Of a stretch of 64,000 bases of DNA, positions 3,498 through 8,067 are shown piece after piece. Source of the DNA: an uncultured Candidatus Saccharibacteria bacterium (GTDB taxonomy: Bacteria; Patescibacteriota; Minisyncoccia; Phycocordibacterales; JACOZG01); the NCBI GenBank assembly GCA_964651115.1, contig CAZYXJ010000001.1, positions 213,077 through 277,076 on the forward strand. The letters are read 5' to 3'. Numbering within the stretch: position 1 is the stretch's first letter; each line of letters starts with the position of its first letter. The notes beneath the pieces are model-generated. The model saw only the letters and a program-made list of their open reading frames with translations, ran no database searches and had not been told where the DNA came from. Both the position numbers and the translations under genes were made by a program.

Positions 3498-4475
3498 TTA
3501 AGCGGCCGTCACCAAATTGGGCGGCGTCTGGCCCGCCAGCGCCGCCAAAATATTGTCGGCCGCCAAACGAGCCATGTCGTCTCGGGTCTCAAAAGTAGCG
3601 GAGGCAATGTGTGGCGTTAAAACGACGTTAGGTAAATCCTTCAACCCCGCCGCCAGAGTGGGCTCATTTTCATAAACATCCAAGCCCGCACCGGCGATCT
3701 GGCCAGAACGCAAGGCCTCCACCAGCGCGGCCTCGTCAATCACCGGACCACGAGCCGTATTTACGATTACCGCACTCGGCTTCATTAACGCCAGCCGCTC
3801 GCGATTAATCAAATGGCGCGTCTCGGGCGTCAGATTAACGTGGAGCGAAACGTAATCCGCCACCGTCAACACCTCCTCCACCGTAGACTTAAACTCAGCG
3901 CCAAATTCTTTCTCAAATTCTTCGTTCCGCTTAACGTCAAAGTAGACCACCTTCATGCCAAAACCGCGGGACGCAAAGTGAGCCAACTTAGAACCAATCC
4001 GACCGGCGCCGACAATGCCAAGCGTCCGGCCATAAAGATCTGGGGTCAAAAAAATCATTGGCGCCCAGCCGACATACTTGCCGTCGCGGACAAATTGATC
4101 CGCCTCGACGATCCGCCGCCCCACCGCCACCAGAAGAGCCAAGGCATGCTCAGCGACGCTCTGACTGGTCGAGGGCGCGGGCGTGTTGGTGATCATCACG
4201 CCACGCTTTTTGGCCTCAACCAGATCAACGTTATCAAAACCCACCGCGTAGTTAGCAAAAATCTTCGCTGTCGGGACGGCCTCAAAAACTTCGGCATCAA
4301 TCTTGTCGGTCAAGAGCGGTAAAACGGCGTCATACGGCTTAGCCCGAAGCGCGGTTAATAACTCCTCGCGCGAGAGAAGGCCATCCTTAGGGCTCACGTC
4401 CACCTCGTGCCCCTTCTCGCGCAACATCTGTTCTGCCAAATCCGGAATTTTCCGGGTAATGTAAATTTTTCCCAT
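3498..4475 (-). CDS. D-isomer-specific 2-hydroxyacid dehydrogenase (glyoxylate/hydroxypyruvate reductase-like)
   Basis: Rossmann GIVGAGRIGSKLA, and RGPVIDEAAL...GAGLDVYENEP...PHIASAT catalytic-region pattern. Confidence 0.85.
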   Translation of the reverse strand: MGKIYITRKIPDLAEQMLREKGHEVDVSPKDGLLSREELLTALRAKPYDAVLPLLTDKIDAEVFEAVPTAKIFANYAVGFDNVDLVEAKKRGVMITNTPAPSTSQSVAEHALALLVAVGRRIVEADQFVRDGKYVGWAPMIFLTPDLYGRTLGIVGAGRIGSKLAHFASRGFGMKVVYFDVKRNEEFEKEFGAEFKSTVEEVLTVADYVSLHVNLTPETRHLINRERLALMKPSAVIVNTARGPVIDEAALVEALRSGQIAGAGLDVYENEPTLAAGLKDLPNVVLTPHIASATFETRDDMARLAADNILAALAGQTPPNLVTAA

Positions 4476-4487
4476 TTATTAATTGTA

Positions 4488-5504
4488 TCATAAGGATTCA
4501 ATTTTTCTTCTAAGTTTCCAACCATTGCCGTGATCCAATAAACCCAAATATGATTGAACTGTCTCCGACTTAACTCCTGCTTTATTTATCCGTTTAAACA
4601 TTCGTCGTCTTGTCATAGTCCGCAGAACACGATGTTTTGAAAATTGGACCCACCCTAGAAAATCAACACCAGAGGAAACTCGCTCGAGAAGAATTTTGTT
4701 GGGATGAAACTCTAACTTCAGTTTCTCTTTTAAGAATTCGGCAATTTCGGGTGCGAGCTTGACTAGACGATCTTTATCGCGACCAACAATGACAAAATCG
4801 TCCGCGTAGCGAAGATAATGCCTCGCTTTCAAGCTATGCTTCATAAACTGATCGAGCTCGTTTAGATAAACATTGGCAAAAAGTTGGGAAGTAAGATTAC
4901 CGAGAGGCAGGCCCTGGCCGGGTACGCCCGAATTAAAACTGTAAATTATTTTCTCGATCAGCCAGATAATACCCTGGTCAGGAATCTTTTTCCTCAATAA
5001 ATCGATCAGTATTGCTCGATCGATGCTAGCAAAAAATTTGCGAATGTCACACTTCAAAACCCAAACCATTTTGGTGTTGTTTCGAGAAAGCTTGGCCGTA
5101 ATTAGGGCAAATTTTTTAATTGCTTTGTGAGTACCTTTTCCGTTGCGACAAGAATAGGAGTCAGAAATAAATCTTGGATGGAAAAACCAGTAAAGCCGGC
5201 GATAAACGGCTCGATGTAAAACCCGATCACGCACGGATGCCTTATGGATCACTCGCCGCTTGGGGTCGTTAATGATGAAAACTTTGTAAGCCGAATGATG
5301 GTATGTCTTAGCCACTAAATCCTCGTGAAGTGAAATAATGTTGGCCATCAGGTTTCGTTCAAATTCCTGCACGTCTTTTCGATTCCGTTTCCCTCTCACG
5401 AATTCCTGCCAGGCCGCGAGCAGATTAGCGAGCGAGACGATATTGTCATATTTTATGGTAGGTGCTATCTTGGCCGAAAATGCTACCGGTAAGCCCCCCC
5501 CCAA
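4488..5504 (-). CDS. DGR-type reverse transcriptase
   Basis: RT motifs including YADDFVIV. Has LGNLTSQLFANVYLNELD (the [ILV]GxxxSQ variant typical of DGR RTs). Lies next to the TR/VR pair. The only in-frame start is TTG at 5504, inside a G9 run. Confidence 0.85.
   Translation of the reverse strand: MGGGLPVAFSAKIAPTIKYDNIVSLANLLAAWQEFVRGKRNRKDVQEFERNLMANIISLHEDLVAKTYHHSAYKVFIINDPKRRVIHKASVRDRVLHRAVYRRLYWFFHPRFISDSYSCRNGKGTHKAIKKFALITAKLSRNNTKMVWVLKCDIRKFFASIDRAILIDLLRKKIPDQGIIWLIEKIIYSFNSGVPGQGLPLGNLTSQLFANVYLNELDQFMKHSLKARHYLRYADDFVIVGRDKDRLVKLAPEIAEFLKEKLKLEFHPNKILLERVSSGVDFLGWVQFSKHRVLRTMTRRRMFKRINKAGVKSETVQSYLGLLDHGNGWKLRRKIESL
5494..5502. repeat. Homopolymer C9 (+) / G9 (-) tract at the RT start codon
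   Basis: Counted directly: aagCCCCCCCCCaacc. On the minus strand it reads TTG GGG GGG GGC. Confidence 0.9.
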
Positions 5505-5513
5505 CCGAAGTTA

Positions 5514-5906
5514 TTGCCTCTTTTGCAAAAGGTGAAGATTGCATACTTATTGTGGTATGAATATTACCAAATTTTGCCAAAAACACATCGACACTCACTC
5601 GGTAAGAAAATTGATACGTTGTGGATCGAGATTATCGAAGCCATTGCGATTGCAAGCTATTTAGGCAAAGGAGAGAAACAACCCTGGGTGAGATTGGCAA
5701 TAAGGAAAACTGATACACTCAAGATATTGCTCTTGGTACTTTGGGAAACTAAATCACTGGATAATAAAAAATATATCGCCCTGTCTTTACCCCTGGAGGA
5801 AATTGGCAAAATGCTTGGCGGTTGGAATGGGCAAATTTTGAGACAATTACAACAAGAACAATTAAAGAAAAACTCTCCCACCAAAGCAGGAGAGAAAATG
5901 AAGTGA
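5514..5906 (+). CDS. avd: Avd-like DGR accessory protein (four-helix-bundle, 23S rRNA-IVS protein family-like)
   Basis: 130 aa, all-helical pattern (KIAYLLWYEYYQILPKTHRHSLGKKID...IEAIAIASY...LKILLLVLWE...IGKMLGGW) with a basic tail. Wedged between RT and TR. TTG start at 5514, or GVG-type GTG at 5529. Confidence 0.7.
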   Translation: MPLLQKVKIAYLLWYEYYQILPKTHRHSLGKKIDTLWIEIIEAIAIASYLGKGEKQPWVRLAIRKTDTLKILLLVLWETKSLDNKKYIALSLPLEEIGKMLGGWNGQILRQLQQEQLKKNSPTKAGEKMK

Positions 5907-5907
5907 G

Positions 5908-6029
5908 TTGCGACGAAACGCAAACCAGTCATTGGAGTTACCGTAGTTCTCGAGCCAGTTGAGGTTCGCCTTGCGCCTCGAGTCGTTCCACCAAACGTTG
6001 CACGCCTGGCGATCGCCATCGAAGAAATA
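5908..6029 (-). repeat. DGR template repeat (TR)
   Basis: 122 bp matching 6408-6529. All 22 differences fall at its minus-strand adenines. In frame it carries seven AAY codons. Confidence 0.88.
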
Positions 6030-6275
6030 GTGTAAGGTGTCATCCGAGTCACCATCTCTTGTCGCCAACACAGGACGATTCGAGATCGAATATTATTCGG
6101 CATCTATAATGCCCTAGCACTCTACACCAAGTAGCTTCATTTTTTATTGAAGGATCTGCGTAAATCCTCCGTCGGAAATCGTAATCGCCGACGCTCTCAA
6201 TTTACAGACACTGGTTTCAGTAGCGAGCAACCCTGATCGCCCACATATTCACCTACTCCCGTCTTTAATTTTAGC

Positions 6276-6305
6276 AAAGAAAAATCCCACACGCGAAGTG
6301 TAGGA
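6276..6305 (-). terminator. Hairpin plus T-run downstream of the DGR target gene
   Basis: Minus strand: TCCTACAC-TTCGC-GTGTGGGA (8 bp, one G-U pair) followed by TTTTTCTTT. Lies 84 nt after the stop codon. Confidence 0.5.
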
Positions 6306-6388
6306 TTCCATTGTTTACGTTTTGGATTACGTTTGGCAAAAATTGCCGAAGAGCAAAATCCAAAGGATCTGAAAAATCTCCAAGGACC

Positions 6389-7048
6389 TTAGGCCTGAGG
6401 ACGAAGCTTGCGACGAAACGCAAACCAGTCACCGGAGCGACCGCAGACCTCGAGCCAGCAGAGGCGCGCCCCGCGCCCCGAGTCGCCCCACCAAACGCGG
6501 CACGCCAGGCGAACGCCAACGAAGAAACACTCCTTGGTGGCCACCACATACATCGGGTCTAATCCCAGTTCCCGATGAAGAGTGGGATAATGTTCGCCAA
6601 TAGCGAACACTTCTCGTGGGTCAGTGCGCTCGAGTCCGAACTGCTCCGCCCAAGCGATAGCCTTGCTCCAGTTGCCACCCCGTGGGAAGTTGAGAAGGAT
6701 GATTTCCTCCTCTTCTTCCACACCTTCTCCCGGCGGATACTGGTCGCCCACCTTCCGGACGTTGTAGTCCAAAGGAGTGTTGGGACCGGCGGCATTCAGC
6801 GCTTCCGACCACTTGCGTCCTTTGTTGAAGCGAACGCGGATCGTGTGGATGCGAGCGCCCGGTGGCGGGATAAGCGGTAAGCCAATGGTGATCGGTAGCC
6901 CAGCCTCGATTCCATCGAGAACACGACCCAGAGTTCCATCGTCAAGTGCCGTTTGCAGGCGGGCTCGACTCATCTTTTTGTCCCGTACCATTTGAACAAA
7001 CTGTCTTCCCTGACCATCGGTCGCGGTTACAACCTTTTCAGTGGTCAT
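6389..7048 (-). CDS. DGR variable (target) protein, C-terminal CLec/DUF1566-like variable region
   Basis: 219-aa ORF whose last ~40 codons are the VR. No N-terminal signal or TM segment. Scaffold reads ...VWWGDS...WFAFRR. Confidence 0.85.
   Translation of the reverse strand: MTTEKVVTATDGQGRQFVQMVRDKKMSRARLQTALDDGTLGRVLDGIEAGLPITIGLPLIPPPGARIHTIRVRFNKGRKWSEALNAAGPNTPLDYNVRKVGDQYPPGEGVEEEEEIILLNFPRGGNWSKAIAWAEQFGLERTDPREVFAIGEHYPTLHRELGLDPMYVVATKECFFVGVRLACRVWWGDSGRGARLCWLEVCGRSGDWFAFRRKLRPQA
6408..6529 (-). repeat. DGR variable repeat (VR)
   Basis: Copy of the TR offset by exactly 500 bp. 22 of 27 TR adenine positions are substituted and 0 of 95 other positions differ. Ends 17 nt before the stop codon. 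Confidence 0.88.
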
Positions 7049-7146
7049 AACTATACCTTTCTTAACATGCCCCCTTTAAGCCCCAGCCACAAGCTGAGAC
7101 CAGAAGCGGGCAAAATGCGTGTTTTACATCAAAGAACTACATTTAT

Positions 7147-7176
7147 AATATACACTCATTTATGCCGAGTTGTCAA
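7147..7176 (-). promoter_or_regulatory. Candidate sigma70-type promoter for the DGR target gene
   Basis: Minus strand TTGACA (7171-7176), N18, TATATT (7147-7152). About 95-nt leader. GAAAGG Shine-Dalgarno before the ATG. Confidence 0.3.
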
Positions 7177-7203
7177 GCCGGCTGAATCTGCTAGAATATG
7201 GCT

Positions 7204-8067
7204 CTAAATGTGGCTAAAAAGTTTTAATTTTTGCTCAACGAGCTTGGTCATTGCCGCCAGGGCTGGCTTTAAGAATTTGCAAGGCGCAACCTCATCAGGA
7301 TTTTCTTGCAACGATAGTTTAAGGCCGTCGCGGTAAGCCACGCGCAGCTCGGTATTGATGTGGACAACGGCAACACCACCCTCGATCGCGCCACGAAAAT
7401 CGCTCTCGCTATTACCCGAGCCGCCATGCAGAACCAGAGGCACACCCGCCGCCGCCCGGATGGCGGCAATACGCGCCAGATCGAGCTTGGGATCAGGTCG
7501 GCCGCGCAACATCCCGTGGATGTTGCCGACGGCTGGCGCCAAAAGGTCAACGCCCGTGGCCACCACAAACTCGGCGGCCTGCTCGGGCTTAGTCAGATCG
7601 TCACCGAGCGCGGCGCCAGCCGGCACCTCGTCGAGCACCTTCGACGAGGTGCCAATATAACCCAGCTCGCCCTCCACCAGCACGTCCCGACCACTAGAAT
7701 GCGCGTACTCCACCACCTTACGAGCGGTCGCCACATTCTCCTCAAACGGTAATTGCGCGCCGTCAAAAATAACCGCGTCAAAACCAGCGTCAATGGCCTC
7801 GACTGCTCGCTCGTAAGAATAAGTATGGTCGGCATTAAGAAAAATCGGGTAGGCAAATTGTTCGCGCAGACTCTTAACCAACGTCGCGATCTGCCGAACG
7901 CCAATAAAGTCTCGCTCGCCCTCCGAAACGCCGATGATCACCGGCAGAGAGAGAGCGCGCGCGGCATTAAATACTGCCCAGACCGCATTAGAATCCGAAA
8001 TATTAAAATGCCCCACCGCCACCCGACGCTCCGCCGCCTCTAGAATGTATTCTCGTAACGTTTTCAT
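7204..8067 (-). CDS. fba: Class II fructose-bisphosphate aldolase
   Basis: Start moved to ATG 8067 (MKTLREYILEA). VAVGHFN, FLNADHT, LVLHGGSG motifs. Confidence 0.9.
   Translation of the reverse strand: MKTLREYILEAAERRVAVGHFNISDSNAVWAVFNAARALSLPVIIGVSEGERDFIGVRQIATLVKSLREQFAYPIFLNADHTYSYERAVEAIDAGFDAVIFDGAQLPFEENVATARKVVEYAHSSGRDVLVEGELGYIGTSSKVLDEVPAGAALGDDLTKPEQAAEFVVATGVDLLAPAVGNIHGMLRGRPDPKLDLARIAAIRAAAGVPLVLHGGSGNSESDFRGAIEGGVAVVHINTELRVAYRDGLKLSLQENPDEVAPCKFLKPALAAMTKLVEQKLKLFSHI

Follow-up and report, generated by a model that had tools for sequence, protein, structure and literature searches.

A conserved simple repeat between the divergent avd and reverse transcriptase genes of a Patescibacteria diversity-generating retroelement, a candidate slippage-prone switch

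The 64,000-nt stretch of DNA analyzed here (the window; positions 213,077 to 277,076 of contig CAZYXJ010000001.1, from an uncultured Candidatus Saccharibacteria bacterium) carries a diversity-generating retroelement (DGR), made up of a target gene with its variable region (VR), a template repeat (TR), an avd gene, and a reverse transcriptase (RT) gene. Our main subject is a run of nine G residues (G9) between the divergent starts of avd and RT. The principal features, in window coordinates, are as follows.

6389..7048, - strand: target gene, an open reading frame (ORF) of 219 aa with the VR at the C-terminus
6408..6529, - strand: VR, a 122-nt match to the TR with 22 differences, all at TR adenines
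5908..6029, - strand: TR, a 122-nt match to the VR, with 27 adenines, all at codon position 1 or 2
5514..5906, + strand: avd, on the strand opposite to TR and RT, with Pfam and NCBIfam profile matches; stop codon TGA at 5904-5906
5494..5502, - strand: homopolymer of nine G (C9 when read on the + strand) that separates the avd start from the RT body; a conserved simple-repeat site
4488..5504, - strand: RT, 338 aa from TTG 5504; RVT_1 match, E 1e-23

The locus carries the sequence hallmarks of a DGR: TR and VR differ at adenines only, an RT of the DGR clade adjoins the TR, the VR lies at the 3' end of the target gene, and an Avd is encoded. Twenty-two of the 27 TR adenines (10 at codon position 1, 17 at position 2, none at position 3) are changed in the VR, there is no mismatch at the other 95 positions, and the VR ends 16 nt before the target stop codon. 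The best solved relative of the RT is a 328-aa reverse transcriptase (entries 8ub7-8ube; E 5.8e-43), which we take to be the Bordetella phage bRT, and retron and group II RTs reach only ~1e-17. The window RT contains LGNLTSQ, which fits the motif-4 signature of DGR RTs, [ILV]GxxxSQ.

The Avd assignment is based on profile matches that fall below the respective cut-offs, namely Pfam bAvd (E 1.6e-9, 38.6 bits vs a cut-off of 40) and NCBIfam DivGenRetAVD (E 1.6e-14, 54 vs 80 bits). In addition, a precomputed match to PF22296 (bAvd) is listed for avd as called on the Logan contig (118 aa) that holds the window's element, as well as for the avd orthologues in related loci L082, L085, and L086-L095; a search of PDB sequences with Avd gave no match. 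The DivGenRetAVD alignment pairs avd residues 1-104 with profile positions 1-102, which supports a start at TTG 5514. The initial annotation of this DNA had proposed either this start or GTG 5529; the latter is set aside, as the codon there is AAG, and the in-frame alternatives are TTG 5523 and GTG 5532. Avd orthologues of the clade almost never begin with ATG, and their only candidate starts are TTG, ATT, or GTG without a Shine-Dalgarno (SD) sequence. The conserved Avd N-terminus, (I/L)LP(V/L)LQK, follows a few bases after the C-run, and phage relatives that have no repeat start avd with ATG.

Our comparison set consists of 80 related genome loci, together 547 kb, which we refer to by L numbers where single loci must be told apart. 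Among these, 61 loci were scorable for avd and for a hairpin described below, 59 provided TR/VR pairs, 57 provided leader sequences, and 35 RTs were used to define invariant columns. The RT has >8000 homologues, and those with a named source are nearly all labelled Patescibacteria or candidate phyla radiation (CPR). The closest relative with genomic context is L082, with an RT identity of 68%. The window's own element is also contained in the Logan assembly of run SRR14271375, which is independent of the GenBank one. A subclade-specific 22-mer, GGGGGGCTTACCGGTAGCATTT, was scanned in metagenomes and matched only the already known L082 contig.

TR and RT lie on the - strand, and the reversed avd on the + strand occupies the ~400-nt gap between them, with its stop codon 1 nt from the end of TR/VR homology at 5908. 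The initial annotation had described both points correctly and went on to call the layout atypical and novel. That view could not be upheld: TR-(avd)-RT, where parentheses denote the reverse strand, is the published architecture B3, found in 90% of the CPR DGR set (Wu et al. 2018, NAR 46:11, PMC5758913), and by the annotation's own criterion, frequency in published surveys, the novelty claim falls. The window has the B3 order, with avd reversed between TR and RT and no other accessory gene. A reversed Avd ORF likewise lies directly upstream of RT in all 61 scorable loci, and the full - strand order is target gene with VR, terminator-like hairpin, TR RNA unit, reversed avd, simple repeat, and RT. 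Geometry is near-constant among the 59 loci with TR/VR pairs (VR-to-TR gap of 250-440 nt; TR end ~30 nt before the hairpin end), and their TR/VR mismatches are biased toward adenines (999 of 1252). VRs vary from sample to sample in two related elements whose RTs are 99% or fully identical. Judged by its gene order and sequence hallmarks, the locus is thus a standard Patescibacteria DGR of the B3 type: order, orientation, host group, Avd-type accessory gene, and a target without recognizable domain are all shared with the B3 elements of CPR bacteria, and the layout does not differ. The same survey contains no mention of a G tract or simple repeat at the avd/RT junction, of a hairpin after the TR, or of a structured leader before it; the word promoter is not used, and terminators were screened only downstream of the initiation of mutagenic homing (IMH) site at the VR.

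What sets this clade of DGRs apart is the simple repeat. Apart from the C9 at 5494, no G or C run in the window reaches 8 nt, and a tract of G7-G14 is present at the homologous site in 67 of the 80 loci, most commonly with 9, 10, 11, or 8 residues (26, 15, 12, and 9 loci, respectively). In seven of the 80 loci, the place of the G tract is taken by another type of simple repeat, which is (CTGG)n in three loci and (CGTT)9, (GT)16, (CT)10, or (GATTGCT)13 in the remaining four; these repeats have units of 4, 2, or 7 nt and extend over 20-91 nt. Throughout the 547 kb of related loci, 65 of the 68 G or C runs of at least 8 nt are at the avd/RT site. The tract also leaves a trace in protein sequences, as RT homologues whose N-termini were called too far upstream repeatedly show GGG or GGGG ~13 residues before the conserved Y-x-x-I-I-S motif. 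Among relatives in IMG/VR, one with a 54%-identical RT has G11 and one with a 59%-identical RT has (CT)n, and classical DGRs at 34-36% RT identity have no repeat. Given this distribution, we consider that the tract is a clade-specific, selected feature of these DGRs. It has the sequence properties of a contingency locus: a G or C run of sufficient length for slippage (~8 nt upward) sited in an ORF or a promoter region, site-specific conservation, and an interchangeable repeat type. The three long runs away from the site are L019:3404 and L019:5253 (G10 each) and one G8 in L062. The run at L019:3404 is just after the RT gene and the run at L019:5253 is ~1.8 kb further on; these two may belong to other repeat-controlled genes.

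Repeat length differs in all four pairs of close relatives from different populations. L100 (JGI 3300025323, G8) and L101/L102 (ENA, G10) share 99.2% identity with 33 substitutions, many of them in the VR, and the tract is the only indel in 3950 nt. The tract is also the only indel in 1342 nt between L097/L098 (G7; maybe long-read contigs) and L099 (G9), which are ~96% identical. At 86% identity, L031 has G6 and L063 has G9, and L005 has (TGGC)8 and L006 has (TGGC)6. Only DNA comparisons were retained here, as apparent variation of tract length among RT N-termini in protein clusters was largely a matter of different start-codon calls. From these pairs, tract length changes would seem to accumulate faster than any other indel, with a population consensus that can be stable. 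A cluster of RT-gene substitutions between L100 and L101 proved to be ordinary non-synonymous divergence and not adenine-specific.

In most relatives, the tract lies upstream of the RT start, most often by 13 nt (range 4-40 nt). The 21 loci with the 13-nt spacing share a consensus that runs from the G-run through TAgaaT TA nnn GT to the ATG, so that TAnnnT ends 7 nt before the start codon. In 22 of the 67 loci (3.1 expected), TAnnnT adjoins the downstream end of the tract and is itself followed, after 5-8 nt, by a start codon. Among 52 long ORFs of the window, 20 have TAnnnT 5-8 nt before the start (7.4 expected), and SD-like cores precede four (3.6 expected), i.e., they occur at the level of chance. 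Leaderless-type starts seem to predominate among the genes of this organism, and in about one third of the clade the tract would lie just upstream of the predicted -10 box of a leaderless-type RT promoter. That the tract itself serves as an SD sequence is unlikely, given the chance frequency of SD cores in the 52 ORFs and the non-G repeats that replace the tract in seven loci. A promoter upstream of the tract (TGnTAnnnT in the first avd codons), from which RNA synthesis would begin in the G run itself, was also tried and rejected; its strict form was found in only 3 of 67 loci (0.9 expected), and matches to a relaxed form are confounded with the coding sequence of avd. Tract length and linker length, compared as a test of constant -35/-10 spacing, gave r=-0.2 in a small sample (n=17).

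The window itself departs from this pattern, as can be read from two further positions at the RT start.

5475..5477, - strand: TCG at the ancestral RT start position; ATG in L082 and most relatives
5542..5544, - strand: out-of-frame ATG, in the frame that G8 would fuse to RT; antisense to avd codons

The - strand reads CTTCGG TTG GGG GGG GGC TTA around the start. The tract opens with the G of the TTG at 5504..5502, and this TTG is the sole canonical in-frame RT start. An in-frame TAA lies upstream, with two codons between TAA and TTG. This start, its overlap with the 9-nt G run, and the nearby TAA had all been noted in the initial annotation and were confirmed here. In L082, the corresponding sequence is ttGGGGGGGGGcttaccggtagcattt ATG CCA AAA; the window has the same 27 nt (ttG9cttaccggtagcattt), followed by TCG GCC AAG. 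Most relatives start RT (with ATG, sometimes GTG or TTG) 8-9 codons before the conserved Y, and residue 20 of the window RT aligns to residue 10 of the 8ub7-8ube RT, in agreement with an N-terminus at the ancestral ATG. By these comparisons, the ancestral RT ATG is lost in the window, and therefore the tract now lies inside the only open reading path to RT. We found no convincing RT promoter in the window, and no suitably placed SD sequence or -10 box for either TTG 5504 or ATG 5544.

Start-codon calls around the tract are inconsistent in public data, with consequences for annotated RT lengths. Gene callers place the RT start differently, either as an upstream extension through GGG or at an internal Met, so that public annotations of the RT N-terminus are unreliable. 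Annotated RT lengths within single 90%-identity clusters range from 290 to 386 aa.

We propose that G9 is one copy of a conserved, slippage-prone switch or rheostat that sets the expression of RT, Avd, or both, and we would give this reading a probability of about 0.45. The tract would act as a conserved cis-element in the very short spacer between the divergent avd and RT genes. Slippage would change its length and thereby the amount of RT and possibly of Avd, and this level would in turn determine whether a lineage currently hypermutates its target. About one third of relatives have a -10 hexamer immediately next to the tract and 7 nt ahead of the ATG, and there promoter geometry would depend on tract length. 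In the window, G9 (or G6 or G12) would read through, G8 would link RT to ATG 5544, and G10 or G7 would leave RT without a start. A wider version is more tentative, and we hold it to be rather doubtful: that the hypermutable repeat (usually G8-G14) acts throughout this clade of chromosomal Patescibacteria DGRs as a heritable stochastic switch or dimmer, making hypermutation itself phase-variable, accompanied by a discrete, uncatalogued TR RNA with a promoter of its own, a 5' scaffold of 230 nt, and a terminator hairpin. The scaffold for the RT-Avd complex would then be 5' of the template, on the side opposite to that in Bordetella.

Several observations weigh against the proposed switch. One element with an identical RT was found in 11 assemblies (ten JGI/ENA metagenomes and one metagenome-assembled genome); it reads G10 in 10 of them, with varying VRs, and G8-T-G in the eleventh. 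The consensus tract length can therefore stay stable while the DGR is active. The length range is narrow (8-11 in 62 of 67 loci) and would fit a fixed-length element too, and homopolymer lengths are error-prone in short-read and especially in long-read assemblies. The repeat is also dispensable for DGR function, as phage-associated elements with 45-50% identical RTs and a divergent avd adjoining the RT start (L109-L115, IMG/VR contigs) have none, the ATGs of avd and RT being ~4 nt apart. As for mechanism, a recognizable -10 box adjoining the tract was not found in 30 of the 67 loci, the window included, so that a promoter-spacer mechanism is not general. Even the controlled gene, avd or RT, is uncertain, because the distance from the tract is shorter and less variable on the avd side (7-10 nt to the first conserved codons) than on the RT side (4-40 nt to the start).

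The main rival to the switch is a fixed-length cis-element. In this explanation, the tract is a cis-regulatory or structural element whose length is held by selection and whose variants are deleterious noise; it could be a rigid promoter spacer, a reiterative transcription start, a poly-C in the 5'-untranslated region of the avd mRNA, or a binding site for protein or RNA. The narrow length range, the G10 shared by ten assemblies of an active element, and the near-constant distance to avd would all suit such an element, as would the 27 nt, G9 included, that are identical in the window and L082 despite an RT identity of 68%. However, the seven loci with unrelated repeat units at the site are hard to square with an element that is specific in sequence or length, and they point to mutability or repetitiveness as the selected property. 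The length differences in all four close pairs also argue against it, and an SD role in particular is unlikely in a genome without an SD signal. We regard a fixed element as a serious alternative, if a somewhat unlikely one.

A purely frame-based control of RT is a little less likely still. Under this model, G9 would be ON from TTG 5504, G8 would be ON from ATG 5544, and other lengths would be OFF. The initial annotation had suggested slipped-strand switching of this kind, and our comparisons support the idea in a broader sense: a simple repeat is conserved at this one site, its length differs between close relatives, and the window has lost the ancestral ATG. The fusion of ATG 5544 to the RT frame by G8 is likewise correct as a reading-frame fact (read on L081, which is identical to the window over the stretch shown), and the frame that G10 would join to RT has no ATG, GTG, or TTG after its stop. 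The model gains from TTG 5504 being the sole canonical in-frame start now that the ancestral ATG is TCG. Moreover, the tract-overlapping TTG, made up of tt and the leading G of the run, keeps the RT frame in L082, L083, and L101/L102 but not in the G8 variant L100, and four relatives (L023, L046, L051, and L059) have no canonical in-frame RT start as assembled. The part that did not hold is the frame switch as a general role: most relatives have ATG, GTG, or TTG at the ancestral position, downstream of the tract, and conservation of the tract therefore cannot stem from frame switching. In the window, the missing SD sequence and -10 box speak against initiation at TTG 5504 or ATG 5544, an RT made from ATG 5544 would overlap the avd start in antisense, and non-canonical initiation further downstream is possible. 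For the window element alone, the frame-switch idea is reasonable.

A different kind of explanation would have TR and RT co-transcribed through avd in antisense, with sense/antisense pairing as the regulatory step and the tract as incidental. This can be weighed from the RNA features around the TR, three of which are listed here.

6268..6276, - strand: extended -10-like box TGCTAAAAT, by sequence reading a putative TR-RNA promoter
6030..6261, - strand: structured leader of ~230 nt, conserved at the nucleotide level across 57 loci
5863..5894, - strand: terminator-like hairpin CTCTCCTGC-TTTG-GTGGGAGAG plus TTTTTCTTTA, with a 9-bp stem at -13.6 kcal/mol (stem-loop 5894..5873)

Among those of the 57 loci whose sequence extends far enough upstream, most have a box matching TGnTA(A/T)A(A/C)T in the aligned position of the putative TR promoter. 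The consensus fold of the leader has six helices with 42 pairs, 40 of which show compensatory double changes; one long-range helix closes on bases just 5' of the TR, and the motif ACTTGGT hardly varies. No Rfam family matched 4300-7300 at E<=1, and this includes the RT motifs RT-1 to RT-19, among them RT-10. The hairpin begins 13 nt after the TR and overlaps the last avd codons in antisense. A hairpin of at most -9 kcal/mol with a T-rich tail is present at this site in 59 of 61 relatives, compared to 3/61 on the opposite strand, 10/61 inside avd, 11/61 inside RT, and 10/61 in shuffled sequences. Stem sequences vary between loci, so pairing is maintained by compensatory change. In most loci, the hairpin lies between ~30 nt before the end of the avd stop codon and 12 nt past it, and the conserved Avd tail, KQNSP...GEK, is in many loci the antisense of the hairpin and U tract; part of the conservation of this tail may thus be an RNA or DNA constraint. 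The hairpin is a putative intrinsic terminator, which could instead or also be an element for recognition by RT/Avd or for priming. Because it is combined with a promoter-like box and a covarying leader, the TR RNA is probably a separate short transcript: the TR probably forms part of a distinct structured RNA, ~400 nt long, whose 3' end falls within the final codons of avd. In the simplest reading, TR RNA and avd mRNA would be convergent, with an overlap of a few tens of bases, and RT would be expressed separately.

Co-transcription of TR and RT is accordingly improbable in our estimation. In its favour, the two are on the same strand, separated by ~400 nt that hold nothing but the reversed avd, a search of the window for an RT promoter gave no convincing candidate, and some read-through is to be expected as terminators are never fully efficient. 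Against this are the hairpin and T tail after the TR with their compensatory stem changes, the separate -10 box 7 nt before the RT ATG in about one third of relatives, and the conservation of the repeat, which co-transcription leaves unexplained. Moreover, transcription of the two together is not a requirement, as noted by Wu et al. (2018, PMC5758913). The obligatory TR-RT co-transcript, fully antisense to avd, that the initial annotation had envisaged is thus not supported. Its second suggestion, that divergent promoters lie inside each other's genes, fared better on one side: a sigma-70-like candidate for avd (5443..5471, + strand), which reads TTGTCA-17-TATCTT and has its second hexamer preceded by TG, falls inside the 5' coding region of RT, as a match from a consensus scan only.

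Two further explanations have little weight. The RT start could simply be lost and the element decaying, in which case the G9/TTG arrangement would be meaningless; the change of the ancestral ATG to TCG and the lack of a recognizable promoter or ribosome-binding site for TTG would agree with this. However, decay is very improbable, since the RT ORF is intact and keeps all residues invariant among 35 relatives and the TR and VR show no drift at the 95 non-adenine positions, and avd, leader, and hairpin are intact as well. Finally, despite the general proneness of homopolymers to error and the poly-G artefacts of two-colour Illumina chemistry, the notion raised in the initial annotation that the tract or its length is a sequencing or assembly artefact can be dismissed as next to impossible, because the separate Logan assembly of the element likewise reads G9, the tract is internal to contigs, and it occupies the homologous position in 67 of 80 loci, which come from a wide range of projects and assemblers.

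The proposed switch can be set beside known phase-variable repeats, such as the opc poly-C and the (TA)n in the overlapping divergent promoters of Haemophilus influenzae hifA/hifB. As at hifA/hifB, the repeat lies between two divergent genes; its length differs in the pairs of close relatives. A poly-G in the promoter of Neisseria meningitidis porA underlies phase variation (PMC3639595), and the repeat studied here resembles those of the porA type in being a homopolymer of ~8-14 nt or a short-unit repeat, placed directly upstream of a -10 box in one third of relatives. In contrast to porA and hifA/hifB, the controlled genes would be a mutagenesis machine, not a surface antigen; the hosts are uncultured Patescibacteria; and the window's tract is inside a presumed ORF. 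Poly-G tracts inside ORFs are described for the gonococcal lgt genes and for meningococcal hmbR/hpuAB (PMC2192423 and PMC3786947, respectively). Similarly, the G9 of the window separates the sole canonical start from the rest of the protein, and a change of one base shifts the frame; unlike in those genes, the in-ORF tract is a derived state of one element after loss of its ATG and not the arrangement of the family. Full-text searches found no DGR literature that mentions a homopolymer, poly-G, or phase-variable repeat, with the main CPR survey outside their coverage, so "undescribed" is a provisional term for this repeat.

Compared to the Bordetella phage BPP-1 DGR (mtd-avd-TR-brt), the window's element shares adenine-specific transfer from TR to VR with Avd and RT. 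It differs in that avd is reversed and occupies the place of the spacer (Sp) RNA between TR and brt, and in that the large structured RNA is 5' of the TR, not 3', with ~45 nt (linker, hairpin, and U tail) after the TR. We know of no simple repeat at the RT start of BPP-1. The Bordetella template needs flanking RNA on both sides, according to a preprint (bioRxiv 10.1101/2023.10.23.563531). The covarying TR leader and terminator hairpin, absent from Rfam, would constitute a second RNA architecture beside the Bordetella Sp RNA, and their arrangement suggests that a reversed avd need not mean extensive antisense transcription. Little is known of how DGRs are regulated in nature, and large numbers of these elements have been reported from CPR bacteria. 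If the proposed switch is real, a mutable switch that controls a mutator would be a simple regulatory principle and could explain why only some lineages diversify at a time. The repeat-less L109-L115 provide a natural comparison group for the tract-bearing elements.

The target protein (219 aa) matched no Pfam or NCBIfam family, and a similar-sized target gene lies upstream of the TR in L082, L100, and L101. Its VR ends in ...GDWFAFRRK, unlike the usual C-type-lectin VR signature, and the protein may represent one of the unclassified CPR VR classes. The target gene is followed by a terminator-like hairpin of its own.

6281..6309, - strand: terminator-like hairpin after the target gene, with a 12-bp stem and a T run

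The G-rich stem end and the T-run of this hairpin are kept in the leader consensus of the 57 loci.

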